DNA from: a virus
Lineage: Duplodnaviria > Heunggongvirae > Uroviricota > Caudoviricetes
Strand: one strand, 5' to 3'
IMG/VR virus record: IMGVR_UViG_3300029842_000004
Length of the DNA: 64,000 nucleotides
Part shown: positions 3,113 to 42,900 of the stretch, in pieces
Position numbering within the stretch: the first letter of the stretch is position 1
How the letters are laid out: each line of letters starts with the position of its first letter
The notes under the pieces: generated by a model
What the model saw: only the letters and a program-made list of their open reading frames with translations
What the model was told of the DNA's origin: nothing
Databases searched by the model: none
Position numbers and translations under genes: made by a program

Positions 3113-3139
3113 TTGTTAAACATAAGGCAGTAGTGGTGC

Positions 3140-3424: not shown

Positions 3425-3698
3425 CAAGCTACGTAAAATGGCTAAGACTACTCCAGGTCTGATAGTGGACGAGGCGCAAAACATGATGCGTGTATCGCTA
3501 TACGATAATGGGGAACTTAAGAAGGTGGTAGTAGTAATGAAATGCGATTCTTTTTTACAGTCAAAAAGTAACATAGAAAAGATAATGTTATTATCATCTT
3601 CTATAGAAGATAGAAAAAACAAAGAAAAAAATAAAACAAAATCAGAAAATGAACAGAATAACAAAAATAAGAGAAGAAATAGGAGAAAAACAGGTTGA
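3405..3698 (+). CDS. hypothetical Lys-rich protein (97 aa)
   Basis: ORF. 3' end overlaps the next ORF by 50 nt. Confidence 0.35.
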   Translation: MERPEYNKLRKMAKTTPGLIVDEAQNMMRVSLYDNGELKKVVVVMKCDSFLQSKSNIEKIMLLSSSIEDRKNKEKNKTKSENEQNNKNKRRNRRKTG

Positions 3699-8630: not shown

Positions 8631-9692
8631 ATGAACAATTCAATGGTCGCTCACTTGTGGGCTCATGAACAAGAAGAATCAGCATCAGGGAGCAATTTCT
8701 TCTTTGAAGGTACAAGTATTTATTCTTATGGGCATCACTTTGAAGTCGGGAGAATAGTAAAAAACAAACAAGGGAAGAAAGCATACCTGATAAATGAAGA
8801 TTATCATTCTGTTACCACGAGCAAACATCAATGCTATGTTCGTAATGCGATACCAACTTGGGCAATGGTTTTCAGTGTAGGGGATAATATATCGGATACT
8901 GGTGATATGAGGTTTGTTGCCAGCAAACTGGAATCAATTAAGAAGTCTATTGAAAAATACAAAAGAGCTAAAACAGAATTATCTTATACAGATATTTGGG
9001 GCGCTTTTGGGAATATGATGGATTACATTCAGTTCTTTAACATGGGGACTGCTAAGAGTATCCTTAAAAAGAGTGCTAATGATTGGCTTGGAACCAATCA
9101 TGAATTATCCAAGAGCGGAGATAGTATCAAGCGTAAGCACGTACATGAATTAAAACGCATCTTTCAAATTTTATTAGATCATCAAGGATTAAAAGTGTTA
9201 GGGACCGTAAATGTGATTGTTGATGAAGTTTGCGGGGAAGGTACATGGATTAAGTATTCAGAAAGATCTGAAAGATGGAGAAAGGGTGAGGAAGAAAGAG
9301 AAAGAATAAAATTAGAGAGATTAAGAAAGGAAGAAGAAGCCCGTTACAAGGATTTTGATGAAAAACTGGAAGAGTGGAAGTCAGGAGAAATCAATTTCTT
9401 GAATACACCTTTCTATATTCCTGGTGAAAAACCTAACGCCTGGATTCGTATAAAAGGAAATATTATTGAGACAAGTAAACAGATAAAGATTGGAATAGCA
9501 GAAGCCAGAAAACTGTGGCGGGCCGTGTCGGAAATGCACCGGGGCGCCGAGTTTCGGCACGGTCTGGTGGAGGATGTCACCGGCCACCAGTGGAGTCTAA
9601 ATCGGTACGAAAACGATTTGTTAACCGCTGGATGCCACCGGATTGCATATAGCGAGATGGAAAGTATTGCGAAACAACTGGGATGGGCGTAA
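8631..9692 (+). CDS. hypothetical protein (353 aa) with a GC-rich codon island near its 3' end (about 9520-9600)
   Basis: Long ORF. Local switch to CGG/CTG/GCC codons. Confidence 0.65.
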   Translation: MNNSMVAHLWAHEQEESASGSNFFFEGTSIYSYGHHFEVGRIVKNKQGKKAYLINEDYHSVTTSKHQCYVRNAIPTWAMVFSVGDNISDTGDMRFVASKLESIKKSIEKYKRAKTELSYTDIWGAFGNMMDYIQFFNMGTAKSILKKSANDWLGTNHELSKSGDSIKRKHVHELKRIFQILLDHQGLKVLGTVNVIVDEVCGEGTWIKYSERSERWRKGEEERERIKLERLRKEEEARYKDFDEKLEEWKSGEINFLNTPFYIPGEKPNAWIRIKGNIIETSKQIKIGIAEARKLWRAVSEMHRGAEFRHGLVEDVTGHQWSLNRYENDLLTAGCHRIAYSEMESIAKQLGWA

Positions 9693-9732
9693 GTAACCCA
9701 TCCTGTTTTATAACAATTAAAAACGAAAAGAT

Positions 9733-9990
9733 ATGGAAAATTCAATTATTGTTCCGTTTGATTTAAATACGGCGAGAAAAATTAAAAGCGGAGAAATAGA
9801 AGGTTCGGTATTAATTGATAATATTGAAATAGAATTTGTATATGAGTCGAAAGACTGTGCAGGTCCTTATAATTTGCTTTTTGTAAAAAAAAGATGGATA
9901 TGGGATAAGTGCTATATATGCCAACACGGAAGGTTGTACTATTGGCGGCACCACTCTGGAATTGAAAGTAGAGGCTGGAGCGTATTTTAA
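9733..9990 (+). CDS. hypothetical protein (85 aa), paralog of 10476..10920
   Basis: N-terminal IPFDL.TA.KIK...EIVYE similarity to the frameshifted downstream gene. Confidence 0.55.
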   Translation: MENSIIVPFDLNTARKIKSGEIEGSVLIDNIEIEFVYESKDCAGPYNLLFVKKRWIWDKCYICQHGRLYYWRHHSGIESRGWSVF

Positions 9991-10471
9991 GAAAGGAGAT
10001 GTATTAACAAGCACTAATGGATATCAATTCATATATGATGGAATTATTACCAAAGGGATAATGGGATGTATATGCGGAATGGCATCATTTGGAGATATTG
10101 GGTTTGATTACAAATTATGGACTGATGTGTATGACGAATATAGAAAACGGCATGTAAGAAAGGCTATAGAGGAAGAGAAGAAATTTTTAGCAGAAAAGAT
10201 TATAAAAGCCGAAGACAGTAGAAAAACAGATATAATAAAACGATATTTAAGTGAATATGAGTATCTATTAGATGAGATGCCGAAACGCGACTTCAAACCA
10301 TTTGAACGAGTGCTGGTGAGAAGAACTAACCAAGAGAGGTGGAAATTGCATTTATTTTCCAGAGAATCAGTAGGAGATAATAAATACGAATGCTTAGGAG
10401 GGGTAGGATTTAGTCAATGTATCCCATACGAAGGCAACAAACATCTTTTAGGAACTAATAAAAACAAATAA
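9962..10471 (+). CDS. hypothetical protein (169 aa)
   Basis: ORF. Confidence 0.55.
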   Translation: MKVEAGAYFKKGDVLTSTNGYQFIYDGIITKGIMGCICGMASFGDIGFDYKLWTDVYDEYRKRHVRKAIEEEKKFLAEKIIKAEDSRKTDIIKRYLSEYEYLLDEMPKRDFKPFERVLVRRTNQERWKLHLFSRESVGDNKYECLGGVGFSQCIPYEGNKHLLGTNKNK

Positions 10472-10475
10472 GATT

Positions 10476-10920
10476 ATGGAATATAAAATGGTAACAATCC
10501 CGTTTGATTTAGAAACGGCGAAAAAAAATAAACATAGGGGAAAGAGTAGGTCAGATTGTGACAGAGAAAGGACGAAATAGAGCAGAAATCGTATATGAAG
10601 ACAATTCGTCAATTTGTCCGTTATTGGTTGTAATTCATTCTATTTCTGTATCGGCAGATTGGTTTTCTGCTACAGGAAAAGCATTTAGCAGCGAAAATCG
10701 CCTCCTTCTTGAAGTCCCGGAATATACTACATTTAAAGATGGAGATGTGTTAAGCAACAAAGATGGAAGTTATATTTTTATTTTAAATATGCATGGGAAA
10801 TATTTAACATCTTTGTATGCGAGTCTTGCAGCGGGAACAAGTCTTAATATATTGGATGATTTGGCTGCACACGAAAACCACATAGAATGTTATAGACTTG
10901 CAACAGATTCGGAAAAATAG
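10476..10920 (+). pseudogene. Paralog of 9733..9990 interrupted by a +1 frameshift in an A8 run (10521-10528), or an assembly indel
   Basis: ATG 10476 frame (MEYKMVTIPFDLETAKKNKH) joins the 10558 frame (AEIVYEDN...) if A8 is read as A7. The joined product aligns with the 9733 protein. Confidence 0.5.
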
Positions 10921-11009
10921 AAGATGATTATTTTCCATTCTCATCTGCAAGTATAGTAGCATACGAGTACAAACTACTCTATCATGAGAAATTCTTCGAA
11001 CATCTTCAT

Positions 11010-11195
11010 ATGAAGAGACTGGTTATTGACGAGAATATCCCTTTTCCGGCAAGTACATGGGAGCGCTCATATCGGTATAAAGGATATGGTTACAATATGT
11101 GCCGGGAGACAAAGAAAAAACTTCTACAGGCTATTAAAGGTATAAACGTAGAGGAGGAAGATGTATCTTTGTACACTACTGGAGGATGGAATTAA
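11010..11195 (+). CDS. hypothetical protein (61 aa)
   Basis: ORF. Confidence 0.4.
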   Translation: MKRLVIDENIPFPASTWERSYRYKGYGYNMCRETKKKLLQAIKGINVEEEDVSLYTTGGWN

Positions 11196-11213
11196 CTTAT
11201 AAAACATAGATAT

Positions 11214-11876
11214 ATGAATACATCATTTGAGAAATCTAAAAACAGTACAGATGAATGGTACACACCTAAAGAAATTATAGACGCTTTAGGGGAATTTGAT
11301 TTAGATCCATGTGCGCCTATGCGTCCGTTATGGAGGACAGCCAGGGTTATGTATAACAAAGAGCAAGATGGATTAAAACAAAAATGGGAAGGAAGGGTAT
11401 GGTTAAACCCACCTTATTCAAGACCGACTATAGAGCATTTTATTACTCGTATGGTAGAGCACAATAATGGAATAGCTCTTCTTTTTAATCGTCTTGACAA
11501 TAAGATGTTTCAGGATGTTGTATTCCCGAAAGCAAAAGGTATATTGTTCATGAAAGGAAGGATAAAATTCCACAGAGAAGATGGAACAATAGGTGAAAGT
11601 CCAGGATGTGGGTCTATTCTGGTTGCATTCGGCGAAGAGAATGCGGAAACATTAAGATCTTCTAATATTGAAGGAAGATATATACAGGTCAATCAAGAAC
11701 CGTGTAACACCCATGTAGATTGGGAACAACGTAGATACGAGATAGCAAAAACCATACTTCCTATCACATCCGTATCAGGACGTGGACCTCACGGTGAATT
11801 AATATTGGAAGCGTGTGATAAGGCGGCTGAATTAGCTGTAATATATGCGGATGCTTTAATTAAAGAACTGAAATGA
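11214..11876 (+). CDS. dam: phage-type DNA N6-adenine methyltransferase (Dam_N6 family)
   Basis: DEWYTPKEI, DLDPCAP and NPPYS motifs characteristic of the phage Dam family. Confidence 0.85.
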   Translation: MNTSFEKSKNSTDEWYTPKEIIDALGEFDLDPCAPMRPLWRTARVMYNKEQDGLKQKWEGRVWLNPPYSRPTIEHFITRMVEHNNGIALLFNRLDNKMFQDVVFPKAKGILFMKGRIKFHREDGTIGESPGCGSILVAFGEENAETLRSSNIEGRYIQVNQEPCNTHVDWEQRRYEIAKTILPITSVSGRGPHGELILEACDKAAELAVIYADALIKELK

Positions 11877-12254
11877 AATCAACAGTATATGCTCATCTTG
11901 AGAATGATTATAGATTTTATAGACTTCCTCTATTTAGAGCTACGGCTGTAAAATACGGATGGAATAATCCTATAGGGGAAGATAGTGGGAGAGAGAAAAA
12001 AATATAATTCACAGTATTAAGTAGATATATTATGAGCACAAGTAAAGAATACAAGGCGGTAAGAAACTGCATACTAAATGAACTTCACCTTACCAAATAA
12101 GATATAATCAAAAACATAGAACCATTATTGGAAAAGCTTGTAAAAAGGTGCATGCATAATACATACGGAGGAAACAATCAGATAGAAAATTGGATCAGAT
12201 GTATGGTAAATGACGAACTTAAACAAAAAGAAGGCTATGGTTTTGTAAGGAAAA

Positions 12255-12872
12255 TATGTGGGGGGGGTTATAAAAGATCATGTGTTGAATGAGTTGAACA
12301 TAATTGTAAGACCAAAAAATGAAAGATGCGTATGTGAAAATAGAGTACCATCAAGAAAAGATGGTTTGTATCTAATCTACGGAAACGGACACGCTGAGCC
12401 GTTTGCTGGAGAGAATTTCAAAAAGAATGTGCGTTATATCGGATTAAAGCACAAAGACGTATCGTTTGCTATCTCACTGACGGAGCATGATAGCGTACAA
12501 TTGCTTGACGATGATAGCCGTGAAAAATCCGGAAGTGAGACATATTACGAACGTAAATGTGATGCGCTGTTTGACATTGACGGACGCGGCAATACGGAAC
12601 GCCTTGTGGCCAGAAATCCAAAGTTGAAAAATTTGCTGAAAGATGGCGAGTATATACCATCTCTTGGTCAATTAAATTTAATGGCCCATTATATGGACGA
12701 ACTAAACAAAGCATTCGCTTATGTTTCGGCATCTCCCCTCTCCTCGACGTGGTATAGATCCAGTACCGAGAGCAGCCCGAGCGTCGCGTGGTACGTGGAC
12801 TTCTCCATTGGTAGCGCGTACTACAGTAACAAGTACAACAGTAGCAGGGTTCGGGCGGTAATTGATTTTTAA
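12255..12872 (+). CDS. hypothetical protein (about 205 aa) with a G8 tract in codons 2-4
   Basis: ATG at 12255 in frame with track ORF 12258..12872. ATG GTG GGG GGG GTT. GC-rich codon island near the 3' end. Confidence 0.55.
   Translation, partial: YVGGVIKDHVLNELNIIVRPKNERCVCENRVPSRKDGLYLIYGNGHAEPFAGENFKKNVRYIGLKHKDVSFAISLTEHDSVQLLDDDSREKSGSETYYERKCDALFDIDGRGNTERLVARNPKLKNLLKDGEYIPSLGQLNLMAHYMDELNKAFAYVSASPLSSTWYRSSTESSPSVAWYVDFSIGSAYYSNKYNSSRVRAVIDF
12260..12267 (+). repeat. poly-G (G8) homopolymer at the 5' end of a CDS
   Basis: Read directly. G/C runs this long are rare in this AT-rich window. Confidence 0.9.
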
Positions 12873-12883
12873 AAAGGATTACA

Positions 12884-13690
12884 ATGATAACATCGGTAAA
12901 AATAAAAGACAACACAAAAACTCCTTTTGAATATGCTTCTGACATAGAAGCATTTGAAAATGGCAGAGAATTTATTTTCAAGCCAGGAGTGAACGTAATT
13001 ATAGGTAAAAACGGTAGTGGAAAATCAACCTTGCTTAACATCATATCAATGTATGCGTTATGTGAGAAATCCATGTGCTCTGAAATACCGATCGAGGCAC
13101 TGGATTTTCCACCTATATTTGATGATGATGATGATGATGACAAGGTTCTTGATGGGATTGACATATCATCCGATTATGCAGGGAAAGTATTCCGTTTATT
13201 GCCATCGGCGGAGATGAATCGAGATAGTGTATTAAAAAACATCAGCAACTTAGATTTGTATGTGAATAATATTCGAAGATCTTATGGAGAGAAAGTGGTA
13301 TTATCATTGGAATCACTTTTCAATTTAATGTTCGGTCAAAAGGATTATACATTTCCAATACAAGATCTTGTAGAATACAAGAAAAAATCAAATGCGTTTT
13401 GGATTAAAAGAATTGATAACCTGTTGAAGTATTATGAAAGAAACCGCATAACATTAACAGAAAGCAGTTTTGAATACACGGTTCTCATGGATGAGCCAGA
13501 TAGGAATCTTGACATTGACAACATAATGCAAATTTATAATGTATTGTCATTCCATAAACCACAAACACAAATTATAGCCATAGTACACAATCCGGCATTG
13601 ATTTACAAGTTAAGCAAATTAGATTGTGTGAATTTCATAGAGATGACAGAAGGGTATCTTAATAAAACTTGTACATTTGTGTCCAATTGA
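12884..13690 (+). CDS. minimal ABC-type (AAA_21/SMC-like) ATPase, 268 aa
   Basis: Walker A GKNGSGKST. Signature-like SYGEKVVLSL. Walker B/D-loop VLMDEPDRNLD. H-loop IAIVHNP. Acidic DDDDDDD insert. Confidence 0.75.
   Translation: MITSVKIKDNTKTPFEYASDIEAFENGREFIFKPGVNVIIGKNGSGKSTLLNIISMYALCEKSMCSEIPIEALDFPPIFDDDDDDDKVLDGIDISSDYAGKVFRLLPSAEMNRDSVLKNISNLDLYVNNIRRSYGEKVVLSLESLFNLMFGQKDYTFPIQDLVEYKKKSNAFWIKRIDNLLKYYERNRITLTESSFEYTVLMDEPDRNLDIDNIMQIYNVLSFHKPQTQIIAIVHNPALIYKLSKLDCVNFIEMTEGYLNKTCTFVSN
13121..13141 (+). repeat. (GAT)6GAC trinucleotide microsatellite encoding Asp7
   Basis: gatgatgatgatgatgatgac inside the ATPase CDS. Confidence 0.9.
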
Positions 13691-22051: not shown

Positions 22052-22330
22052 ATGGGTAGATCGACAGAGTACTACAGGACTCATCCCGAAGCCAGGAAGA
22101 AAAAGGCTAAAAAGGACAAGGAGATAAATGCCAGACCGGAACAGAAAGCCAAACGCCGGGAGCTTGGTCGTAAAAACTACGAAACGGACAAGAAGAAAGG
22201 CAAAAGCTGGAGGAAAGGCAAAGATTGTTCTCATACCAAAAACGGTCTTAGGTATAAATCAGTAAAAGCTAATAGGGGATCCAAATCGGATACAAAAGGT
22301 GACAAAAATGCACGAGGAGATAGCAAATAG
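22052..22330 (+). CDS. highly basic Lys/Arg-rich small protein (about 92 aa)
   Basis: KKKAKKDKE...KRRELGRK...KKKGKSWRKGKD. Start taken at ATG 22052 after an A9 run. Confidence 0.5.
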   Translation: MGRSTEYYRTHPEARKKKAKKDKEINARPEQKAKRRELGRKNYETDKKKGKSWRKGKDCSHTKNGLRYKSVKANRGSKSDTKGDKNARGDSK

Positions 22331-23426
22331 GATAGATATAAGAAGGATATTCAAAACCTCCAAACAGGTTATGGAAGAGGCGTATGAGAATATCTTAAAA
22401 TACAGGCGGGGAGAGCTTATCCCCGCTAAAACCGGATACGATTATATTGATGAGGCTTTGCTTGGAGGTATTTTCCCTCAGCATGCTATTGCCATAGGGG
22501 CTCGGCCATCTGTGGGTAAATCGTATGTGGCCCAAAAGATATTGGAAAATGTGATGAATCCGATGATCAACCCACAAGCAGAAGATTATTTTCTTGTCAA
22601 TTGCGAGTTCGAAATGAATCCTCAAGATCTTCTTCTTCGCAGAATGAGTCAGGATATGAAAAAACGGGCTCCTGAAATATTAAGAAGGCAAGATTCTAAT
22701 ACAGTAGAAGAGATAAGGATGTTTGAAATCCTTCAAGGTGAAATCAGAAATAATATAATATACATCGACGCTCCGTGTACGGTAAAAGAGTTTGAGGCGG
22801 CTGTGTATCATATAGCTACCAAACACAAAGACAAACGTCTTATAATATTTAAAGTCGATCATATTGCTTTGATAAAAAGAATGGGATTAGATCCTAAGTC
22901 GGCTATAGATGATTTGGTGGCGGTTATGAACGAAGCTAAATTAGTATATAAAAACATATTTTTCCTCATCATATCCCAATTCAACAGAGAGATAGAAGGA
23001 AGGATAAAAAGCCCTCAAGAGCAGCCTCCCCGTCTTTCTGACTTTTATCAGTCTGATACGCTGGGGCAACTATGTACGTTAATGATAGGTTTGCATAATC
23101 CTCGCAGATACGGGCTGGACAAGTATATGATATTTGGGAAAGACTGGTATCAGACTCTTGATAGGTTTAAAACTGAAAACAAAACATCATTCAGGACAGC
23201 CGGACTGGTGTTTCATCATATACTGAAGGTAAGGCAAGTTAGTATGGAAGAGCTTACTAATACAATCCACCCAGAGATACTGCCGGGACATGAATGGATG
23301 TACGGGGAGGGCGGGACGAAGTTCGTGAACCCCAACCAGCCGCCGACGCCGCCTAAGCTCTATACTGTGGAAGACGTTACGGACAATCAGGAACAAGAGA
23401 CAAAAGAAGAACAGTCATTGTATTAA
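22299..23426 (+). CDS. DnaB-like replicative helicase (RecA-fold C-terminal domain)
   Basis: GYDYIDEALLGGIFPQHAIAIGARPSVGKSYVA matches the DnaB H1/Walker A region. IIFKVDHIALI Walker B-like. Confidence 0.75.
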   Translation: MTKMHEEIANRIDIRRIFKTSKQVMEEAYENILKYRRGELIPAKTGYDYIDEALLGGIFPQHAIAIGARPSVGKSYVAQKILENVMNPMINPQAEDYFLVNCEFEMNPQDLLLRRMSQDMKKRAPEILRRQDSNTVEEIRMFEILQGEIRNNIIYIDAPCTVKEFEAAVYHIATKHKDKRLIIFKVDHIALIKRMGLDPKSAIDDLVAVMNEAKLVYKNIFFLIISQFNREIEGRIKSPQEQPPRLSDFYQSDTLGQLCTLMIGLHNPRRYGLDKYMIFGKDWYQTLDRFKTENKTSFRTAGLVFHHILKVRQVSMEELTNTIHPEILPGHEWMYGEGGTKFVNPNQPPTPPKLYTVEDVTDNQEQETKEEQSLY

Positions 23427-24259: not shown

Positions 24260-24973
24260 ATGTACATCAATTTCAGACAACTTGCAGCATCAGACATGAC
24301 TCCTAATGATCTTGCTAATCTTCTTGCCATAAGACAGAAGGATTCGGTTATGATCGAAGCCATGCCGGAAGAAGATGCTGGGAGGTATATAGAGCTTGGC
24401 CTGGTTGAGAAATTAAAATCAGGCGTGATGAGATTGACCAACAAAGGAACGTCTTTTGTGAATTATATAGAGACACCGGAGATGACAGACGAGGTTCTGG
24501 AAACGTTGAAGATTATGATAGGAATGTACGAATCGTATTCAAAAGACATAGGTGTCAGCAGAAAAGAAGCGGAATCCAGATTGTGTTGGTTTATGGGTAA
24601 CACCTCATTCAAGAAAGAGGTCATACTTCAGGTAACGGAATCTTATATAGCAGAGTCAGGAGATTATACAATGAGCTTATGCAACTTCATATGGAAACCG
24701 CCTTCTCAGGCTTTTTCAGTTTATATGAACCTTAAAAATTCAAAGCTCTTTGACTTAATAGCTGAAAAATTTAAGATCGCTACCGAGCCTTATTTGGAGT
24801 CTAAGAAGAATAAGGAAATGGATTGGTTGTTTGCCGTATCTAAATTGCCTACGCCGCCAGCTAAAGGCAATCCGGATTATTTGTTTACCGGAAGTTCTGA
24901 AACAGACAAAGAGCGATTGAAAAACATAAAAACGTATTTATTTAACAAAATTAGAAAGCAATGGAAAAAGTAA
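24260..24973 (+). CDS. hypothetical protein (237 aa)
   Basis: ORF. Confidence 0.6.
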   Translation: MYINFRQLAASDMTPNDLANLLAIRQKDSVMIEAMPEEDAGRYIELGLVEKLKSGVMRLTNKGTSFVNYIETPEMTDEVLETLKIMIGMYESYSKDIGVSRKEAESRLCWFMGNTSFKKEVILQVTESYIAESGDYTMSLCNFIWKPPSQAFSVYMNLKNSKLFDLIAEKFKIATEPYLESKKNKEMDWLFAVSKLPTPPAKGNPDYLFTGSSETDKERLKNIKTYLFNKIRKQWKK

Positions 24974-25212
24974 GAATCAGAAAGATAATAGAGGATATAA
25001 TTATTACTCAGTTTCTTAATTCGGAAATAGATATAATTCATGAAGAAGATGTGACGTTTAAAGAACTTGGATTAGATTCTGTTGATCAAATTGAACTGGA
25101 AGTGATGGTGGAACAAAAATTCAATATTGTTATTATTGATTATAATATGGAGACCATCAAAGATATGACTGATCTTGTTTACAAAATAATAACAGAAGGG
25201 TATGGGAAGTGA
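24961..25212 (+). CDS. acyl-carrier-protein-like small acidic protein (83 aa)
   Basis: ELGLDSVDQIELEVMVEQKFNIVI matches the ACP helix-II phosphopantetheine-attachment motif (LGxDSLD.VEL). The Ser falls in DSV. Confidence 0.55.
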   Translation: MEKVRIRKIIEDIIITQFLNSEIDIIHEEDVTFKELGLDSVDQIELEVMVEQKFNIVIIDYNMETIKDMTDLVYKIITEGYGK

Positions 25213-25690
25213 TATAATTTTATGCATGGCTTTAATAGCATCATTTGCTTTTGTTATACAGTTTTTGTTGTCGATATTAGGATCTGATCTGGATACGGAT
25301 ATTGACAATGCTTCTGATTTAAGCATGTCTTTATCAGACATCATATCATTTAAGGGTATAACACATTTTATTCTTGGATATAGCTGGACTACCTACTTTT
25401 CGGGTTCTCATTTAGTAGGGGTTGTGATAGGGTCGTTTTTCTTTATCGTTTTGTTTTACGTATATAAGTTACTTCTTAAGTTAAAGCAAGAAATGGTGTA
25501 CGAATGTCCGGAAGATTTAAATGGCAGAGAGGTGGAGATAGTATTTAGATCAGGGAAGAATCATTATATGGTAAATATTTCGAAAAATGGAAGACAGGAG
25601 CAAATGAGAGTAAGATGCTTGTCTGGAAAAACTTACAAAAACGGTGACAAGGTGAATATAAAATACGAAGAAGGAGAACTAAGTATCTAA
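25202..25690 (+). CDS. NfeD-like membrane protein (N-terminal TM helices plus C-terminal OB-like beta domain), 162 aa
   Basis: Three hydrophobic helices, then GREVEIVFRSG...MRVRCLSG...GDKVNIKYEEGELSI. Immediately upstream of an SPFH gene, the canonical NfeD-SPFH arrangement. Confidence 0.6.
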   Translation: MGSDIILCMALIASFAFVIQFLLSILGSDLDTDIDNASDLSMSLSDIISFKGITHFILGYSWTTYFSGSHLVGVVIGSFFFIVLFYVYKLLLKLKQEMVYECPEDLNGREVEIVFRSGKNHYMVNISKNGRQEQMRVRCLSGKTYKNGDKVNIKYEEGELSI

Positions 25691-25722
25691 TTTTTTTTAT
25701 CAACAATTAAATTTTAAAAGTT

Positions 25723-27168
25723 ATGACAACAATCATATACGTGTCAGCTATCTTAGCTGTAGTGATTATTTTGACAATCATCGGAGTCTTATCAAGGTAT
25801 CGTAGATGTAAGCCTAATCAGGTCTTGGTCGTTTATGGTAAGACAGGTGGGGAAAAGAAATCGGCGAAATTATATCATGGTGGAGCGGCATTTGTCTTGC
25901 CTATTATTCAAAGCTATGATGTTTTGTCAATGGAGCCTATGCAAATAGATTGCAAGCTTACCGGTGCTTTGTCATCTCAGAATATTAGAGTAGATGTTCC
26001 TACGACTATTACAGTAGCTATCAGTACAAATCCAGAGATCATGCAAAATGCGGCAGAAAGACTTTTGGGAATGGATACCGAATCTACTGAAAATCTTATT
26101 ACGGACATCGTTTACGGTCAGATGCGTTTGATTATTGCTGAAATGACAATCGAAAAACTTAATTCTGACAGGGATGAGTTTTTGGATAAGGCAAGAAAGA
26201 ACATTGATAACGAGCTTAACAAGTTAGGTCTTTACCTCCTGAACATCAACATCAGTGACATTAGAGACGAAGCCGGTTATATTATGAACCTTGGTAAGGA
26301 GGCTGAAAGTAGGGCTCTGAACGAAGCACAGGCTAATATCGAAGAACAGGAGAAGCTGGGGGCTATTAAGATTGCTGTACAGCAGAAGGAGAAAGAAACG
26401 GCTGTGGCTAATACCAAAAAAGAACAAGAGATTCAAATTGCTTGTACTGAAAAAGAAAAGGAAACAATAGTAGCTGAAACGAAGAAAGAAAAAGAAGTAG
26501 CTTTGGCTTTAACCGATAAAGAAAAACAGATCGGTGTAGCTCAAGCCGATAGAGATAGGGCTGCGGCTATAGCAAAGACTTTGGCTGACAAGGAATCAGC
26601 GATTGCAAGATCTAAGGCGGAACTTGAAGTAAACAAAGCTGAAGCCGAAAGAATGGAAGAAGCTAAGGCTAAGAAAGTTCAGGCTGCGCTTAAGGCTGAA
26701 AAGATTGTGCCGGCTGAAACCCAGAAGGAAGAGGCTATCTTGCAAGCTGATGCCGAGGCCGAGAAGATCAAACGCCAGGCTGAGGCTGAGGCATCAGCAC
26801 ATTTGGCAAAAGCTGAGGCAGAGGCAAAAGCTATTCAGATGAAGCTGGAGGCAGAAGCCGAAGGTAAGAAAAAGTCGTTAATGGCAGAAGCCGACGGATT
26901 TAAGGCTATGGTGGAAGCAGCAGAATCCAATCCTCAGATCGCCATCCAGTACAAGATGGTTAATCAGTGGAAAGAAATTGCTGGAGAACAGGTTAAAGCA
27001 TTTGAGCACATTAATCTCGGAAATATCACGGTATTTGACGGCGGTCAGAACAGTACCGGTAATTTCCTTAACAATGTTGTCAAGACCGTCGCTCCGGCAT
27101 TGGGAGTCATTGATCAGCTTCCGATTGCAGATACTTTAAAGAAATTAAAAGGAGATGACAAAAAATAA
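25723..27168 (+). CDS. flotillin-like SPFH/band-7 protein (YqiK/FloT-like), 481 aa
   Basis: N-terminal TM anchor. SPFH core (LVVYGKTGG...QIDCKLTGALSSQNIRVDVPTTITV...IIAEMTIEKLNSDRDEF). Long Ala/Glu/Lys-rich flotillin coiled-coil repeats. C-terminal conserved tail. Confidence 0.8.
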   Translation: MTTIIYVSAILAVVIILTIIGVLSRYRRCKPNQVLVVYGKTGGEKKSAKLYHGGAAFVLPIIQSYDVLSMEPMQIDCKLTGALSSQNIRVDVPTTITVAISTNPEIMQNAAERLLGMDTESTENLITDIVYGQMRLIIAEMTIEKLNSDRDEFLDKARKNIDNELNKLGLYLLNINISDIRDEAGYIMNLGKEAESRALNEAQANIEEQEKLGAIKIAVQQKEKETAVANTKKEQEIQIACTEKEKETIVAETKKEKEVALALTDKEKQIGVAQADRDRAAAIAKTLADKESAIARSKAELEVNKAEAERMEEAKAKKVQAALKAEKIVPAETQKEEAILQADAEAEKIKRQAEAEASAHLAKAEAEAKAIQMKLEAEAEGKKKSLMAEADGFKAMVEAAESNPQIAIQYKMVNQWKEIAGEQVKAFEHINLGNITVFDGGQNSTGNFLNNVVKTVAPALGVIDQLPIADTLKKLKGDDKK

Positions 27169-27385
27169 ATACAATGGCCCAAGGTTACACTTGGGCCTAA
27201 TTGAAGAAATAAAAGCAGCATTCATAGATTTCCTGCCTGCGGGAACAGTGATTTTAAGTGCTTTACTAATTACGATATTTTTAACATGGATTTTGGACAA
27301 GATTTAGAACCAGAAGAACTGACCAAGCATTATGATCAGTGTTATGGAATTGATTTTGAAACAGAAGAAGAGGAGGATGAAGAGT

Positions 27386-27691
27386 ATGACCGATGAGGGA
27401 TTTGCATTAGATAATAAGAAAAAGGTTGTTGTAAGAAAAAGAATATCTTATTTAAACAAAGGGGATAAAGTGTGGATTGTGTCTTCCGATGGGTATCTAC
27501 TACACACGGACGTAGTTAGAGCCGACCGCGGTAGATCTTATGTGGATATAGACGGGATTCTGTATTGGAAGCGAGGATTAGATGGCAAGCATCGTAATCG
27601 TAATAACTACATGCAGTTTGCCATGACACCAGAAGACGGTAAAAAGTATGTCGTATATTACCCAGAAGGGTTTAAAGACAATGACTTATGA
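27386..27691 (+). CDS. hypothetical protein (about 101 aa). Start revised to ATG 27386 after SD aggagg.
   Basis: Track ORF 27332 probably starts too early. SD-ATG spacing supports 27386. Confidence 0.5.
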   Translation: MTDEGFALDNKKKVVVRKRISYLNKGDKVWIVSSDGYLLHTDVVRADRGRSYVDIDGILYWKRGLDGKHRNRNNYMQFAMTPEDGKKYVVYYPEGFKDNDL

Positions 27692-28707
27692 TGGTCCCGG
27701 AAACGCATTTGCTATATAAGGAGTTTAATGGAGTGAAACGCCTTGCCATATCTTATTCCCAGATAGATACGTTTCTTACCTGTCCAATGAAATGGTATAA
27801 GACTTATGTGGAAGGTAAAAGGTCTACAGAAAAACAAGAAGCTACGTCTTATGGTACGGTTATTCATAAGACACTGGAATACTTCTTCAAGAACGGAAGG
27901 CAGCCTTCTGGCAAAGACCTTGGAGAAGCAATAAGTTACTATGCTTACCAAGAAGACATACCTTGGCAATCACCGGAAAATATGATGATAGCCATGAAAC
28001 AATCTGGGGAGCTTCTTGCTTGGATTGTGGATCTGTTTAAAAAAGACGGCAATAGGTTTATGATAGCTGATAGTGATCTTAATCCTTGTGAGAAACTTAT
28101 CAGACACGGCGCTATAGTTGGAGTCGAAGAAGATTTTGTGCTGCCGTACCGCCTTCCTAAGCCAGTTGACATAAATGGGGTAATTCATACCCATGTGTAC
28201 ATAGTAGGATCAGTAGACCTTCATCTGGCTATAAAGAGCAAGAACGTAATTCACCATTATGTCATAGATTGGAAATCAGGGAATAAGGTTTTTGATTCTA
28301 AGAAGTTGGAAACGAATTTACAGCATCCTATATATTCGTTTTACATCTATAGAAAATATGGTGGGGTTCTACCAGATATGAACATCTATTTCTTTACCAG
28401 AACCAGGCAGTACCAAAAGGTTAAGGTGGATGAGGAACGTAAAACAAAATCTATAGAGATGCTAAATGACACTTTATCTAAAATGTATGATTTTGAAGAT
28501 AATAGTGTAAAATCATTTCAAGCGTACATCCAGGGAGCAGAAGGAGCCAGATATAGCAAGAGGCGTGCCACCCTAAGCCAGCCTGTTTCGCAAAACAAGC
28601 TGCCCTGCCCGTCAGCACTGTGTTATTATTGTGACTTTGGATTACATAACAAAAACGAATGCCCTTTCTCTTCAGATTGGGATCCGTCTAAAAAGATAAA
28701 TCGATGA
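27688..28707 (+). CDS. Cas4/RecB-like PD-(D/E)XK exonuclease with C-terminal Cys cluster (339 aa)
   Basis: SYSQIDTFLTCPMKWY N-terminal motif. GSVDL. VIDWKSG (hhDxK[ST]G). C-terminal CPSALCYYCDF...C cluster. Confidence 0.65.
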   Translation: MMVPETHLLYKEFNGVKRLAISYSQIDTFLTCPMKWYKTYVEGKRSTEKQEATSYGTVIHKTLEYFFKNGRQPSGKDLGEAISYYAYQEDIPWQSPENMMIAMKQSGELLAWIVDLFKKDGNRFMIADSDLNPCEKLIRHGAIVGVEEDFVLPYRLPKPVDINGVIHTHVYIVGSVDLHLAIKSKNVIHHYVIDWKSGNKVFDSKKLETNLQHPIYSFYIYRKYGGVLPDMNIYFFTRTRQYQKVKVDEERKTKSIEMLNDTLSKMYDFEDNSVKSFQAYIQGAEGARYSKRRATLSQPVSQNKLPCPSALCYYCDFGLHNKNECPFSSDWDPSKKINR

Positions 28708-36926: not shown

Positions 36927-39900
36927 CTATTTGTAGCTTGTATCCTCATCACCTTCCGAATCAGGAGTGGCGCCGATGAAGAACATCATTGACTTGTTGT
37001 TCGTCTGCTGCCACCAATTATAGGCGCGCGCTACGTCTTCCGGCGTCTTGATATTATACCATTGTTTGATAAACGTCTGTTTGGCGAGTTGCCTAAATAA
37101 CTTAGACTCTCCCTTGTATGTACCGGATGTTACTTTATCAAGTGAATAATTCCTAAGATCGGTAAGATCCTTCAGTTTTCGCCCCATAACAAACGGATCG
37201 TTAATGATATCTACCACGTTAAGCTCCATAATAAACGGCATCTGTGAAGCTATTTCGTTTATGGTTCTGAATCCGACATAGGATCCAAATTGAGTAAGCC
37301 AACTTTCTTCGTTTTCATCATCATCACGCCATCCGGCAAGAAGCATAGATACGGCCTGCATGATAAGGAACGTGCCGGCATAGACACTGAGACGTTTGAG
37401 ATTGGTTTTTTCTACCTCATTCATATTGTCTTTATTTTCATTCCAGACATCTATGATGTTTTTCATACCAGACTCGGAAGCCAGGCTAAATGCTTTGGCT
37501 ATCATATTCTTTAACGTAATTGACAACCCTTCCTCTTCTTGCATTGTCTGGAAATTGAAGCCACGTCTTTTCCACAGACGTTGAGCTGCCAGCACCAGCC
37601 AGCCTCGGTGGGCGGTCATGAACCTGGCTATCCAGTTGCGCGATGCGGCAGTTCGATTTTCTTCATTCAAAAATCCGTTACATATCTGCGACAAACTACG
37701 AACTTGATTTCTGGTTATAGCCATCTGGGTTTCAACTTCCTCAACAGTAACACCCGATCCCGGCTTTACAACCACCTTTCCATCCACGACGTCTACCATA
37801 CTCCATAAAGTACGATCTTTTAATGCGTTCCATTCTCTTTTTATGGTACTCTGTTCTTTATTTCGTTCTTTTTCCATCTTGAAATCTTGGAACGTGTAGA
37901 ACCGGCCTTTGTAATAACGAACATTGTCCATAGTAGCAATCATAACCTGCGGATCAAGAGGGTAGTTCAGGATTTCCATAAAAGCATACATAGGCGAATG
38001 CATTAAGGTCCTGGCCGCTCTATTGTATCCGGCACCATACATACGATTTCGGATATTGAATATCCCCATTCTCTCACCTATGACATATAATTTACTTTTT
38101 CTATCTATGTCTCCGGTTTCTGCTATACAAGATGGCGCAAGACGTGAAAACTCAGCCGATGCGTATTTAAGGGAATCTTTGCTTATATACTGTCCTACGG
38201 CAGATTCCATGATGAGGTTGATGTGGCCGGTAAGGGCGCCGGTAGCTGCCACAAACGGAGACAGTGCCAAGTTCATGACCGACATAAACCTTTCAACAGC
38301 CATCATAATTCTTGTAAGGTCTACCGTATATCCTCCGATGTTCACCGTAAGTTTTTTGGTGTTCATCCTAATGCCATAATAATGATCGTTGAAGAAGTCC
38401 CTAAACATCTGATATGCTTGGGTTGCTTCAGCCTTCTTACCGCCCTCAAATTGTTTGTTCAGCAACATCTGCTCCAGTCCTTGGGCAAGCTCTATAGACT
38501 TCTGCTTTTCGTTGTATAACGATGACTGCATCATAAGCATCGAATAAGAGTAGCCAAAATCGTGAGATACATCATCTTGGTTCTCCAATTCATATATGTA
38601 GTATTTAGGTATAGACCTAAGCCTGTCTTCAGGATCATATACTTCCCCCTGTCTGGTTTTACCGTATAGAGAATCGTCTACTCTGTCCAGGCACAGATCT
38701 GATACAAAATTACGAACCGTATTTTTGAAGTTAATACCCAATCCTTCTACACGTTCTATGTCTTGTTTTGATATCTGTGGAATAGCATATAGGTTCGGGC
38801 TCTGCTCTTTGTATAGATCAAGTGATTGTCTTTTTATTTCCTTGAGTTTTTGAATCATATTCCACTGCTCTACGTTTTTAGTAGCAACTTCATTACCGTC
38901 AGCATCATACTTGATACCAAAGTCATTGAAATACGATTCATCACGATACAGGCTTTTCTTAGGCATGCGATGACCATACCCATGATCTTTTACATAATCG
39001 GGATTACGGCCGCTATTTTCGGCTTCAGATTCAGCCACCCATGCCCTTGCAGGATCGAAAGACAGGTACGATATGTCCATGCCATAATCTTGGGTGGATG
39101 TACCGTTTTGTACGTCCTTAACCATCTGCGCCACATCTATCTCACCTCGACCTATTTTGTCGATCATGGCCGCATATCCGGTAGGCGCCATGCGTTTATA
39201 GTACGAAAAGACCTGGCTCCTGGCAAATTCATTAACAATAGCATTGGCCTCTTCTATGCCCTCTTCTCTTGTATTATTTAAAAACAAGCTGGCCATCTTA
39301 GCATTAACAGCATTCCTGAAATCTCTACCGTCTAATTCTTTGCTTATACCAAGCTTTTCTGACAGGTAGTTGGTTTCAGATACGGTAAACAGATATCGGT
39401 TATCAGCAGCCTTAAACAGCTTATCCCTTAAAGCCTGAATCCTTTTTGCTTTCTTCGCCGTAGTATGACGTTGTACGAACTTCCATTCCACTTCCTTGGA
39501 GTCAGCAAGAGCATTTAAATAAGACTGATTTACTTCGTTTTCGGCCTTACTGCTTTTAGTAAGGTACTTATCAATATCTTCAAGACCCACCATCTTAGCA
39601 TAATCTATTAAGATAGCGTAATCAGCTTCAATAGCTTCAGATGCGGCCCTAAAAGCATCTCTTTCAGATGAGGTAAATGTCGCTTCGTTAATTTCTCCGA
39701 TATCAGCCACATCTCGGTTGTTTCCGATTATTTCCTTGATAATGGCCTTATTTTTTTCTATATCTTTCACAATCGAATCCACGTCAGTCGCATCTCTATC
39801 ACTTGTCGTAGAACTAATGATATCATGCGCCATTTTAAGATACGAAGCCTTGTTATTTGATTCGGTACGCGCCGACTGTTCCGATTCTACTTCATTCCAA

Positions 39901-42900
39901 AACCGATCATTGAACGACAGGTGACCTCCCAACATAAGTGTCTTCAGCGCAGCTTCTCCTCCCGACTCGCTCTGAATCGTTCTTAATTTTTGCAAAAACG
40001 ATTCTGATACGGCATTAGTGGCATTATTTGATTCTTTTCTCCAAACTTCATTTATGGCTTGTATTTCTTTGGCCATCTTAAGTTGGTCGCCGGTTTTTTC
40101 CACTCTCCTGGTTCCTACATATATGTATTCCGAAGCTGCCTCCTTACGTTGTTTACGAAGCAGTCCTTCTTCTTCGTAGTTACTACTCTTATAGTAGGCA
40201 ACCTCATCAAAATTACCACCGCTATCAATAAAAGGCTGCCTCAATATCCGTTTTTGCCGGGATAAGGCATTAAGGTATTCTTTGGTTGTTTGAGAAACCG
40301 GATGTCCTAATTCTTCTTCAGCCTTTTTGTATATGGATTCCATTCTTGTGGCATAACTTTCACTAAATTCCAATTCTGAATTTTCAGCATCCCACTTTTC
40401 CATCTGCTCCGTATAGATCTTTTCCTGCTCGATGGTAAAAATATCGGTATTAACCCTATCGGACGATGGTTTAAATTTAGCGTTTTCAGTAACCGTATTT
40501 CCGTCCTTGTCAACTACTTCTCTTTTAAATACGTAATTACGATTATTGTCAACCACATCACCAATTTCTTCTTCTGATATCTCTATGTTCATGGCAGTCG
40601 CAAACGCTCGCATCTGCGCCAGCTTCTTATTACGATCGTATTTAGCCATATCAAGAGCACTACGAAGGTAATTAGAAGTTTTGCCGTCTACTTTCTGAAG
40701 CAGTTTTTCAAATTCAGATTTGTTAAAACCATGCTTTTTAGCATATGCCAGGAAGTCGGATATGGCGGGCTGGGCATTCACCATCGCATTGTAATTGTCT
40801 TTGGCAATCATAGCTCCAAGAGCGTTATTGAACGGACTGGAAGAATGCTCTAATATACCAAACCACCTACTTATCCAAGAAACATCGTGTTGAACCTTGT
40901 CGAAAAATTCTTTTACTCTCTTTACCTTATCTGCCGGCACATGAAGTTCGTTCATTAACTTATCAAGCAACGTACTTTCATCAAGGTCTTGTACTGATTT
41001 AATATCAGACTGAATACCATTGATGTCGGCAATGACGGTATTGATCCTATTTGTATAATCCTGCTTTTCACGTTCATCAAATTCGGTACTTCTGTTACGG
41101 ATATATCCTCGAAGATCGTTCATGATCGGAAGAACCTGATTGTTGATAATATCTACGTTCTTTCGATCATTGGTATTGAAGTGAAGCTTACCGTCTTTGG
41201 TATCACCATGAAGGATGGTGTTCACCACATTGCTTAAGTATCTGACCTGAGCTTCGGCTGTGGAGATCATGCTGTTCATGGCAGCCGCCATCTCATTCTT
41301 GTCTATCTCGGTCTCTACTTTATTTATCTTATCTTCTATGGTCTTAAGCTGAGCAAGGGTCATAGACGTAGTTACAGCCCTATCAGAGCTTATCTGACGT
41401 AAGTCTCTTAATGTTTTTCTTAGCGATCTGATCTTAGACTCAAGAAACTTGTTCTTGTTCATAGAAGAAAGGGAGTATAATGTAAAGTCATTATCCTTTA
41501 ACAGAGAGGTGTCAAATCCTTTATCTATGTCAGTAATGGCAAGATCACGAATGTTTTTAATAACGTTATTCAAATCTTGTCTTTGGGTTGATAAAGCTGA
41601 TTTAAGCCAGCTTACTATTCCAGAGAAAAGCCGCCGGACGCGCCCCAGGAAGGAGGTGGGCTCTACCGGCGCCTGTGCTGTGCCGGTCTGCATCTCCCTG
41701 GCGAGGATCTTTCCAAGAATTTCTCTCCTAACAGCATTATCAAGCTCAGCTCCTTCATATACCTTACCGTATGTATTATAATACTGACCTGCATACTGGT
41801 TCCACTCTTCCGTACCTTCCACATCTTGCAGAACAGCCTCAACAGCATTCTGATCTCTGTACGCCTCTACAAGGAAGTGGGCTGTTTCTTCTACTAAATC
41901 AGATAAAGTAGCATCTTCACCAACTGCTATTACGTTATTAGCAATATCCGCCAATGCCTTAGCAGAAGGTTCGTGCCCGTATTTGGTTTGGTACTTCTCT
42001 ATATAGTCGGTCATACCTATGACACTAACGCCAAGCGTTTTCAGTATCTCGACAATAGAATTTCGTTGGTCACGTTCCTGCCTGCTATAATCTGATACGA
42101 TCTTAGCTTTAGTATCAGCATAAAGATCGTTATCTTCTAATATGAATGAAACTACAAGCGCATCAAAATGATCGTACTTGGCGTCCAATTCATTGTATCT
42201 TCCTGACTTAAGATCGTTCTTTATCTGTTCCCTACTAACCCTTTCCGTTCCTCCGGTGGCGAGTCTCATAGTTACCTTACTGTTATCCAACGAGCTTATG
42301 GTTATCATACCTTGGTCGTTCATGGAAACATCGGAACCAAAATGATTACGGAGCTCGGTGTATGATAAGGCTGAATTGAAAAGTCTAATTTGTCCTGTAT
42401 AACCTTCTCCTGTAAGATAATAGCTTCTTGTTTCAGAATCGAATATCTTAGATCCTGACAAAAGACCTTTCTTTATAAGGTAGTTAATTATCCCGCCTTT
42501 TGTTGATAAAGAAGTAGAAGCAGAAGCGGTCATGACCGGTATAAAAGACTTGGGATTATTAAGAACATACTTTCCAGCTTTGTAAGTAATGTCTGCCACG
42601 CCATCCACGGTAGATTCTTGAACGGTTCCTGATAAGAATCCTATTCTAATATCATTCCCGCCAGAGCGAAGAGCTTCTCCGTAATCTTCAAATAATTGAC
42701 TACGATCGTTCATGAAAAACAAACGAGGCTCTCCAGTCTGATACGTTACACCCACAGGATTAGAATCTGTTTCTGGTAGCTCTTCTGGGCTAAATATCTT
42801 AAGACCGTCTTTTATAACCATATAATTAACACCCTTATCCTGTACCACAGATACGGGAGTGAAGTCCGAAGATATAGCATCTTGTAAATACTGCCCGGCG

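Follow-up and report, generated by a model that had tools for sequence, protein, structure and literature searches.

The presence of a flotillin gene in the genome of a phage raises the questions of where such a gene and its neighbours have come from, and what they may be doing in an infected cell. The phage concerned here is one of the crAss-like phages, which are among the most abundant viruses of the human gut, and whose Epsilon members are, to our knowledge, uncultured. The window, i.e. the whole stretch of DNA that was analysed (64,000 nucleotides; IMG/VR record IMGVR_UViG_3300029842_000004), shows 95.8% nucleotide identity to the GenBank genome crAssE-Sib (OR575929.1), which has been placed among the Epsilon crAss-like phages (PMC11054128), and it represents an Epsilon crAss-like phage of Bacteroidales. 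It contains three co-directional ORFs on the plus strand, viz. 24961-25212 (83 aa), 25202-25690 (162 aa) and 25723-27168 (481 aa), and the ORF listing agrees exactly with the positions at which the initial annotation had placed a three-gene module comprising an acyl carrier protein (ACP)-like protein, an NfeD-like membrane protein and a flotillin of the SPFH superfamily. The 83-aa and 162-aa ORFs overlap by 11 nt, and 32 nt separate the 162-aa ORF from the 481-aa ORF. In OR575929.1 these genes are labelled as acyl carrier protein, transmembrane protein and flotillin family protein, respectively. Their identities are already in GenBank, and the main result of the present work is the origin of two of them from a host operon; the functions proposed below we infer from sequences and models.

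The largest of the three proteins is, based on its profile matches, a flotillin-type SPFH protein, in agreement with the identity initially proposed for it. It scores 92.1 bits with the Band_7 profile (PF01145; cut-off 23.6), which places it within the SPFH superfamily, and 38.3 bits with the Flot profile (PF15975; cut-off 27), the latter match following a long coiled coil, and the only solved structures that it matches are those of human flotillin-2 and flotillin-1 (E values of 1e-26 and 2e-22). The protein begins with a predicted membrane anchor, a hydrophobic stretch at residues 5-24 (25735-25794) with the residues RYRRCK after it, and this is followed by the SPFH/Band_7 domain (residues 30-211; 25810-26355), the coiled coil (residues 212-364; 26356-26814) and the C-terminal Flot oligomerisation domain (residues 365-474; 26815-27144). 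According to the positive-inside rule, the flotillin would have a cytoplasmic orientation. With the NCBIfam equivalog model for FloT (NF058507), the score of 158.6 bits stays under the cut-off of 700, and the phage protein should be regarded as flotillin-like rather than as an orthologue of FloT.

The form of the flotillin present in the window is not the common one. In 78 of the 81 loci from IMG/VR and GenBank the protein is 566 aa long, and alignment of the nucleotide sequence to locus L001, as well as alignment of the proteins, indicates that the 481-aa form differs from this majority allele by an in-frame deletion of 255 nt (85 aa) in the coiled coil. The junction of this deletion (26654..26662, plus strand) is, as read from the sequence, the retained copy of a 9-nt direct repeat, TGGAAGAAG. 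Due to in-frame deletions in the coiled coil, the alleles of this protein range in length from 409 to 595 aa; no tandem DNA repeats are found in this region of the gene.

The protein encoded directly upstream (25202-25690, 162 aa) is referred to here as the NfeD-like partner, a designation based on its fold, its gene context and the naming of its family, which should be read together with the fact that the Pfam NfeD profile (PF01957) shows no match to it even at E values up to 10. The other models in Pfam (E up to 10) and those in NCBIfam, PHROG and PADLOC also gave no usable match, and the Pfam YqiJ/DUF1449 profile did not match the protein. Structure prediction, which had been proposed in the initial annotation for all three proteins, was carried out for the partner, and it bears out the TM helices and the C-terminal beta domain expected there. 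The AlphaFold2 model based on 67 homologues (pLDDT 89.3), which replaced an earlier model from 6 sequences (pLDDT 61), contains helices at residues 2-26, 50-67 and 70-94 and a six-strand beta domain at residues 110-161. The predicted parts of the protein are thus TM1 (residues 2-26), an acidic DxDxD loop (residues 27-47), a TM2-TM3 hairpin (residues 50-94) and a C-terminal OB-type beta-barrel (approximately residues 105-162; 25514-25687), which in the model is like the C-domains of solved NfeD proteins. In a Foldseek search of the PDB, the 67-sequence model retrieved only generic OB folds at non-significant scores; the top match of the first model (pLDDT 61) had been YbbJ from the QmcA-YbbJ complex (8z5g). 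A word-indexed homologue search with the partner recovered only sequences from the same clade, and it was an exhaustive profile search that revealed its wider family, of which Pfam NfeD matches 2 of 67 members (best E value 6e-5). The profile of this family aligns over the whole soluble domain of YuaF with an E value of 0.19, and its comparison by hhalign with the single sequence of E. coli YqiJ gave a probability of 2% and an E value of 0.022 for one comparison. The 162-aa protein lacks the N-terminal ClpP-type serine protease domain that characterises long-form NfeD proteins and is thus a short form, as are YuaF, YbbJ and YqiJ; its three modelled N-terminal helices and its location next to an SPFH gene in the window agree with an NfeD-like identity. 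Hence, of the profile matches anticipated for the three proteins, those to Band_7/SPFH and PP-binding (see below) are found, whereas that to NfeD is not.

The origin of the two genes is clarified by the chromosomes of the hosts. A scan of host genomes using the flotillin alignment as the query, the alignment of the partner family offering no conserved stretch for this purpose, yielded 80 chromosomal loci from Bacteroidales, the flotillins of which are 60-65% identical to that of the phage. In 79 of these 80 loci, a gene of the partner family (A3 family) is present directly upstream of the flotillin gene. Because the same partner directly precedes a flotillin of this degree of identity in nearly every host locus, the pair in the phage is evidently a captured host Bacteroidales operon. 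The host partner genes match the family profile with E values of about 1e-55, and they are named in some sources as 'NfeD-like C-terminal domain-containing protein' or as 'membrane protein implicated in regulation of membrane protease activity', although they too show no match to Pfam NfeD at E values up to 0.05; the Bacteroidales flotillin-partner family is not modelled by Pfam. In a neighbour-joining tree, the phage flotillins are located beside those of Bacteroidales and far from E. coli YqiK and the protein of Vibrio phage KIT04; however, this tree carries no support values, and it should not be interpreted as fixing the number or the direction of the transfers. The sequences P0293, P0308, L082 and L084 are of the host type in the flotillin tree. 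The phage copy now shows about 63% identity to the host in the flotillin and 35-40% in the partner, which indicates that the capture occurred long enough ago for such divergence. The operon logic invoked initially, viz. an NfeD gene upstream of an SPFH gene, thus proves to be stronger than was supposed, as the pair copies an operon of the host. A view of the partner family as specific to phages, based on three phage-like contigs, was overturned by the host-genome scan.

As the pair is clearly host-like and deletion variants of it exist, it could be asked whether it is an artefact of host contamination or chimeric assembly, which the initial annotation had named as grounds for rejecting its proposal, or a neutral, decaying passenger that was picked up recently. 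This possibility is effectively refuted. In the complete GenBank genome, the pair is located inside a co-directional block of replication genes, with phage replication genes on both sides, and the identical gene order is found in this genome and in each of the 80 IMG/VR contigs that were fetched for the clade, which come from many samples and which supply the survey of related phages that had been suggested. Further, the base composition of the pair region is like that of the remainder of the window, and both genes are under selection. The pair is present in 81 of 81 fetched close relatives and in the sister species, as well as in all 8 of the additional IMG/VR contigs from other lineages (L176-L183). 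The dN/dS values for the flotillin (0.039) and the partner (0.061) are the same as those of the neighbouring replication genes. Because the synonymous divergence of the pair is 0.17-0.20 while its dN/dS is 0.04-0.06, the pair has evidently been retained for long under selection, and these values indicate strong purifying selection since the capture. Natural variants which have lost most of both genes also occur (a 196-aa in-frame fusion in two ENA contigs), and the pair is therefore not essential. With nearest relatives that are chromosomal genes of the host, flanks consisting of phage core genes and a non-essential character, it has the features of moron-type cargo. Since a widespread lineage keeps this operon under strong purifying selection, it can be argued that it is of some use in the infected Bacteroidales cell. 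The pair represents genuine host-derived, strongly conserved cargo, of a function proposed here from sequence, in a common crAss-like phage of the human gut.

The first gene of the locus (24961-25212, 83 aa) behaves differently from the pair. Its identification as ACP-like and the DSV motif noted in it initially are upheld: the protein scores 26.0 bits with Pfam PP-binding (PF00550; cut-off 20.8), matches phrog_5934 ('acyl carrier protein') at 1.8e-8 and also matches 52 solved ACPs, and within its LGLDSVD motif, Ser40 (codon 25078-25080) is the candidate for carrying phosphopantetheine; L38-D39-S40 and D42 of this motif are invariant among 69 intact orthologues. Its score with the model for the housekeeping AcpP (TIGR00517), 28.9 bits, does not reach the cut-off of 70.45, and all 15 of the NCBIfam ACP models remain under their cut-offs. 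Homologue searches and tblastn against GenBank phages recovered this protein only from the same clade. If the three genes formed a true unit with a link to lipids, as initially suggested, then the ACP would supply an acyl or phosphopantetheinyl group to the flotillin complex, either for lipid remodelling or for lipidation of the scaffold. The 11-nt overlap between the ACP and partner genes is consistent with this, as is the order ACP, partner, flotillin, which is common to two phage species; the ACP of the sister species is only 35% identical, but its position is kept and its D-S motif is intact. In addition, Cys29 of the flotillin, located directly after the membrane helix, is invariant in the phage and host sequences, and at one other viral locus (L183) a PP-binding ACP (36.7 bits) is found 3 kb from the pair. 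However, none of the 80 host loci contains an ACP up to 4 kb away from its flotillin, and the ACP is also missing at the other 7 of the 8 loci from further viral lineages (L176-L183) and at L082-L085. The dN/dS of the ACP is 0.37 versus 0.04-0.06 for the pair, so that it is about 6-9 times less constrained, and in 8 of 80 relatives the ACP is inactivated (6 nonsense and 2 frameshift changes) with the pair intact. Further, the annotation of a 151-kb relative lists no PPTase, acyltransferase or acyl-ACP synthetase. The chance that the three genes form such a unit is, in our estimation, slight, and these comparisons point to the ACP being a separate neighbour, which evolves fast and can in part be dispensed with, rather than an integral third component; it may have a loose functional link to the pair. 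Recoding of a stop codon was considered for the nonsense alleles and rejected, because the stops in the five identified alleles (the sixth being that of L069) are not one codon, four of them being TAA and one TGA.

Among known systems, the phage pair most directly corresponds to the operon of Bacteroidales, e.g. in Bacteroides xylanisolvens XB1A (L129), Parabacteroides goldsteinii (L102) and Phocaeicola massiliensis (L164), where a partner gene is likewise followed by a flotillin gene after a short gap. The phage copy differs from it in being located among replication genes, in having an ACP-like gene directly upstream and in the variable length of its coiled coil, and the identity between the two flotillins is 75% for the TM and SPFH region and 80% for the Flot C-terminal domain but 50% for the coiled coil. 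In E. coli YqiJ-YqiK and B. subtilis YuaF-FloT, a multi-TM partner with a C-terminal OB domain is also encoded upstream of the flotillin, and YqiK and FloT share with the phage protein the N-terminal anchor, SPFH domain, long coiled coil and C-terminal domain, although the identity to YqiK is only 22%. QmcA-YbbJ (8z5g) is a solved SPFH-NfeD complex, but QmcA is of the stomatin type whereas the phage protein is of the flotillin type, and the sequence identity to this complex and to the NfeD C-domains 3cp0 and 3wwv is 5-20%. SPFH genes were already listed in the T4-like phages 44RR, Aeh1 and RB43 in 2006 (PMC1524935), and an SPFH protein (263 aa) together with an ACP in the Vi01-like phage PhiSH19 in 2011 (PMC3220722). 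In view of these reports, and of the presence of the same genes in OR575929.1, the initial description of a phage-encoded flotillin as unusual was overstated. However, the earlier phage SPFH proteins are mostly short and contain only the SPFH domain, whereas that of the window is a full flotillin with a partner; the 'flotillin family protein' of Vibrio phage KIT04 is full-length, but it is 30% identical and its upstream ORF is just 82 aa. For none of these earlier cases has the capture of a host operon that includes an NfeD-like partner been demonstrated, and our literature search found no paper discussing a flotillin from a crAss-like phage.

The function of bacterial flotillins is still debated. 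The reading that we favour, with a probability of about 0.55, is that the captured operon supplements or replaces the flotillin microdomain of the host, with the ACP being separate from it. In the infected cell, the flotillin would be anchored by its N-terminal helix, as suggested by SPFH structures and the positive-inside rule, and its coiled coil and Flot C-terminal domain would mediate oligomerisation to a cage that lies against the inner membrane at the cytoplasmic side, with the three-TM partner and its OB domain probably located at the base of the cage. The microdomain so formed may stabilise the proteins and the integrity of the inner membrane while the cell is infected, and the operon would then constitute cargo for the maintenance of the host. 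A cage architecture has been described for flotillin and HflK/C, in which the C terminus stabilises oligomerisation (PMC11260169), and in S. aureus FloA-NfeD carries out an ATP-independent stabilisation of unfolded membrane proteins under stress (PMC11222466). However, the host already has its own flotillin/partner pair (79 of the 80 loci), so that the benefit of a second copy is not evident, which counts against this reading. If the phage flotillin instead co-assembled with the host subunits or displaced them, then it would re-partition the inner membrane, the height or compatibility of the cage being tuned and the ACP being accessory. The Flot C-terminal domain, which is the most host-like part (about 80%), the coiled coil, which is the least (about 50%), and the allele lengths of 409 to 595 aa can be cited in its favour, but we consider this to be improbable.

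Two other proposals have to be weighed against a role in maintaining the host membrane. The phage cage could enclose or sequester a membrane AAA+ protease, e.g. FtsH, as HflK/C does, with the consequence that phage proteins are protected or a repressor/antirepressor switch is biased. HflK/C cages do contain FtsH (PMC11260169), the Epsilonunoviruses carry repressor and antirepressor genes (PMC11054128, and also the annotation), and a classic AAA ATPase (PF00004) is encoded 1-3 kb upstream of the pair in L085 and L183 (120 bits in L183). However, the phage protein is of the flotillin type rather than of the HflK/C type, its best solved relatives being flotillin-1 and flotillin-2, the window has no AAA gene beside the pair, and the association with AAA genes is that of two loci, due to which control of a protease appears unlikely, though deserving of some weight. 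The scaffold could also act in exclusion or counter-defence, by blocking the DNA entry of competing phages or by shielding the membrane from abortive-infection effectors. In the gene table of PhiSH19, an SPFH gene (74,140-74,931) is immediately followed by a 'superinfection exclusion protein' (75,137-75,457) (PMC3220722), and the pair is early-block, non-essential cargo that is typical of such functions. But the PADLOC search gave no match, and very strong purifying selection, together with SPFH and C-terminal domains that nearly match those of the host, does not resemble an arms race, and we regard this role as no more probable than co-assembly with the host subunits. The natural alleles of this locus (viz. 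the different coiled-coil lengths, the deletions of the pair and the ACP knock-outs) could serve to probe SPFH cages in Gram-negative anaerobes.

Scans for sigma-70 promoters and for terminators showed no excess over shuffled sequences, such scans being ill-suited to Bacteroidales. The flotillin stop is overlapped by 14 nt by a small plus-strand ORF with a hydrophobic segment (27155..27307, 50 aa), which is 34, 50 or 57 aa long among the relatives and has a dN/dS of 0.36. The sister species has a 52-aa ORF with 33% identity at this location; the position is thus conserved but the sequence poorly so, and its status as a gene is uncertain. On the other side, a plus-strand gene for a 237-aa protein (24260..24973) overlaps the start of the ACP gene by 13 nt at its 3' end; it is described here as context and its membership in a module is not claimed. 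Pfam, PHROG and PADLOC gave no match to this protein, and a homologue with 45% identity is present in L083, where no ACP is adjacent. The gene is intact in 80 of 80 relatives with a dN/dS of 0.045, and its product is 76% identical in the sister species.

The three genes present at 24961-27168 in this Epsilon crAss-like phage, viz. an ACP-like gene (24961-25212, 83 aa), an NfeD-like partner gene (25202-25690, 162 aa) and a flotillin gene (25723-27168, 481 aa), are co-directional on the plus strand at the positions reported in the initial annotation. They are embedded in a densely packed block of plus-strand genes, which contains upstream a DnaB-like helicase (22299-23426) and three small genes without assigned function, and downstream a PD-(D/E)XK exonuclease (27688-28707) and also a helicase. 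The ACP-like and partner ORFs overlap by 11 nt, the start of the former is overlapped by 13 nt by a 237-aa ORF, and the flotillin stop is overlapped by 14 nt by a 50-aa ORF; the base composition of this region is uniform with the remainder of the window. Promoter-like and terminator-like sites did not exceed shuffle frequency, as judged by sigma-70 and terminator models that are ill-suited to Bacteroidales. The 237-aa gene (24260-24973, plus strand) has no detectable family, is intact in 80/80 close relatives and shows a constraint equal to that of the replication genes (dN/dS 0.045), with identities of 76% in the sister species (a more distant phage species with the same gene block) and 45% in L083, a related phage. 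Further along the window, the GC skew switches sign near 36000, where gene orientation flips, and past this point the minus strand carries giant ORFs at 36927-43349 and 51973-58380 (2140 and 2135 aa), of which the former matches a PHROG virion structural protein.

Over 8 kb, the region is 95.8% identical to GenBank OR575929.1, the record of the 151-kb human-gut phage crAssE-Sib, which PMC11054128 describes as Epsilon crAss-like and assigns to a proposed genus, Epsilonunovirus. The flotillin is found in at least 165 IMG/VR contigs, and as the gene order is identical in all 80 of those fetched and is shared by the crAssE-Sib record, host contamination or a chimeric assembly, which the initial annotation had named as a concern, is ruled out. 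The depositors of OR575929.1 labelled the three genes as 'acyl carrier protein', 'transmembrane protein' and 'flotillin family protein', and the main text of PMC11054128 makes no mention of flotillin, ACP, SPFH or membrane. The locus is a phage-borne example of a known bacterial operon type, which was annotated already and is analysed here for the first time. SPFH genes in T4-like phages have been on record since 2006 (PMC1524935), and PhiSH19 encodes an ACP besides an SPFH protein (PMC3220722). Among 50,697 GenBank phage records, only 10 gave a tblastn match to the flotillin, and only crAssE-Sib is close.

The description of the third gene as a full-length flotillin-type SPFH protein is borne out by profile matches above the Pfam cut-offs (Band_7, 92.1 bits; Flot, 38.3 bits), and its only solved sequence relatives are human flotillin-2 (E 1e-26) and flotillin-1 (E 2e-22). 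However, with 158.6 bits, where 700 are required, it does not qualify as a FloT equivalog; it shares only 22% identity with E. coli YqiK, and no family in PHROGs matches it. A 566-aa allele is present in 78 of the 81 fetched loci, from which the 481-aa window allele differs by a single 255-nt in-frame deletion (85 aa) within the coiled coil, flanked in the long allele by the 9-nt direct repeat TGGAAGAAG, whose retained copy lies at 26654-26662. Such length polymorphism of the coiled coil, described here for the first time, is extensive, as 98 distinct close alleles keeping both conserved ends range from 409 to 595 aa, and their length differences are in-frame indels confined to this region. 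Cys29 (25807-25809), which comes immediately behind the N-terminal membrane helix (SRYRRCK), does not vary among the aligned phage and host sequences; its position is reminiscent of the S-acylated cysteines of eukaryotic flotillins.

For the 162-aa partner, no match was found in Pfam (including E values up to 10), NCBIfam, PHROGs or PADLOC. An exhaustive profile search placed it in a family that comprises 231 representative clusters, most of them 150-190 aa long, and that has no Pfam model. An AlphaFold2 model based on 67 family members is confident (pLDDT 89.3) and predicts three helices, the first followed by a disordered, acidic DxDxD loop, and, at the C-terminus, a six-stranded beta domain; Foldseek returned generic OB folds only. 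The family profile spans the entire soluble domain of YuaF at an E value of 0.19, and Pfam NfeD is matched by 2 of the 67 members. Thus, the NfeD-like assignment, which is new for the GenBank 'transmembrane protein', holds in terms of predicted fold, architecture and context, but does not extend to the sequence level, where the window protein has no Pfam NfeD match. In the family alignment, residues 27-47 (25280-25342) form an acidic DxDxDxD loop that is conserved, after which comes an S-F-K-G motif without variation, K51 and G52 being the same in all 67 sequences; some members carry the JGI label 'Ca2+/Na+ antiporter'.

Scanning genomes with an alignment of flotillins recovered 80 chromosomal loci, in Parabacteroides, Bacteroides, Phocaeicola, Prevotella and their relatives. 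The flotillins at these loci are 60-65% identical to that of the window (by region, 75% in TM+SPFH and 80% in the C-terminal domain, with the coiled coil at 50%). In 79 of these loci a partner-family gene lies upstream, its end about 30-140 nt from the flotillin match, the remaining locus beginning too near a contig end to be scored, and the proposed NfeD-SPFH operon arrangement is thereby upheld. Some sources name the host partner 'NfeD-like C-terminal domain-containing protein' or 'membrane protein implicated in regulation of membrane protease activity', and others hypothetical. In a neighbour-joining tree without support values, the phage flotillins cluster together beside the Bacteroidales set and are remote from YqiK and Vibrio phage KIT04. 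These sequence relationships show the pair to be an operon captured from the host, an origin not reported previously.

Among 80 close relatives (81 loci for some genes), dN/dS is 0.039 for the flotillin and 0.061 for the partner, all 81 copies of which are full length at 162 or 164 aa, and the pair is under purifying selection; the value for the exonuclease (339 aa in 79/81) is 0.053. A larger deletion is seen in two ENA contigs (L172 and L173; 32 kb and 76 kb), where a 196-aa in-frame fusion at 3001-3591 joins the N-terminal part of the partner to the flotillin C-terminus. Most of the pair is thus naturally deleted in these contigs, whose flanking genes are normal, and the pair is therefore not essential; comparable fusions are seen in several Logan proteins.

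The ACP-like assignment of the first gene is well founded (PP-binding, 26.0 bits against a cut-off of 20.8; phrog_5934, 1.8e-8; matches to 52 solved ACPs; Ser40 within LGLDSVD), and as it stays under the cut-off of every NCBIfam ACP equivalog, it is a divergent ACP. The sister species retains the order 237 aa, ACP, partner, flotillin and small ORF, and its ACP keeps the D-S motif (PP-binding, 32.7 bits), but this is the fastest-evolving gene of the block, with 35% identity to the window, whereas the partner reaches 61%, the flotillin 67% and the other conserved block genes 76-84%. Its dN/dS is 0.37 and it is intact in 69/80 relatives; the 11 non-standard alleles comprise 6 nonsense, 2 frameshifts and 3 in-frame indels, so that it is inactivated in 8/80 with every neighbouring gene intact. 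Amber recoding does not account for the nonsense alleles, as the five identified codons are TAA or TGA. No ACP was found within 4 kb of the flotillin at the 80 host loci, nor near the pair in four other contigs (L082-L085) and 7 of 8 other viral loci; in the eighth (L183), a PP-binding ACP follows the pair 3 kb downstream. The annotation of the whole 151-kb relative lists neither a phosphopantetheinyl transferase nor an acyl-handling enzyme. Based on its fast evolution, inactivated alleles and absence from the host loci and most of the other viral loci, the ACP is a long-standing, weakly constrained neighbour, newly seen here as decoupled from the pair, rather than an established third component. 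The three-gene module proposed initially is thus not sustained, and a true ACP-linked unit is improbable; the original observation is confirmed and its interpretation partly supported.

By comparison with solved SPFH assemblies (PMC11260169, 8z5g) and the positive-inside rule, the flotillin would be anchored by residues 5-24 and form a cage on the cytoplasmic face, with the partner helices lying within the enclosed membrane patch and the OB domain against the SPFH ring. By analogy with FloA-NfeD of S. aureus (PMC11222466), the complex would most probably maintain inner-membrane proteins and membrane function during infection. That it instead controls an AAA protease is unlikely, and a role of the pair in superinfection exclusion or counter-defence is somewhat less likely still.

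The pair is also present in 8/8 further IMG/VR contigs (25-183 kb), and in L083 it occupies a different genomic position. TnpB / IS605 OrfB-type genes, which could bear on this relocation, occur in L083 (4670-5815, between the helicase and the relocated pair) and in OR575929.1 (58986-60125 and 64190-65413). Two other viral lineages, L085 (3549-5006) and L183 (43-1014 and 2514-3602), have ATPase genes of the classic AAA type (PF00004) at 1-3 kb upstream of the pair, and L085 has a second Band_7 gene (262 aa) 2 kb downstream. Lastly, very few ORFs of at least 75 aa are seen under the standard bacterial code beside the pair at about 8800-13200 in the 183-kb IMG/VR contig L177, which may reflect stop-codon recoding in that phage.
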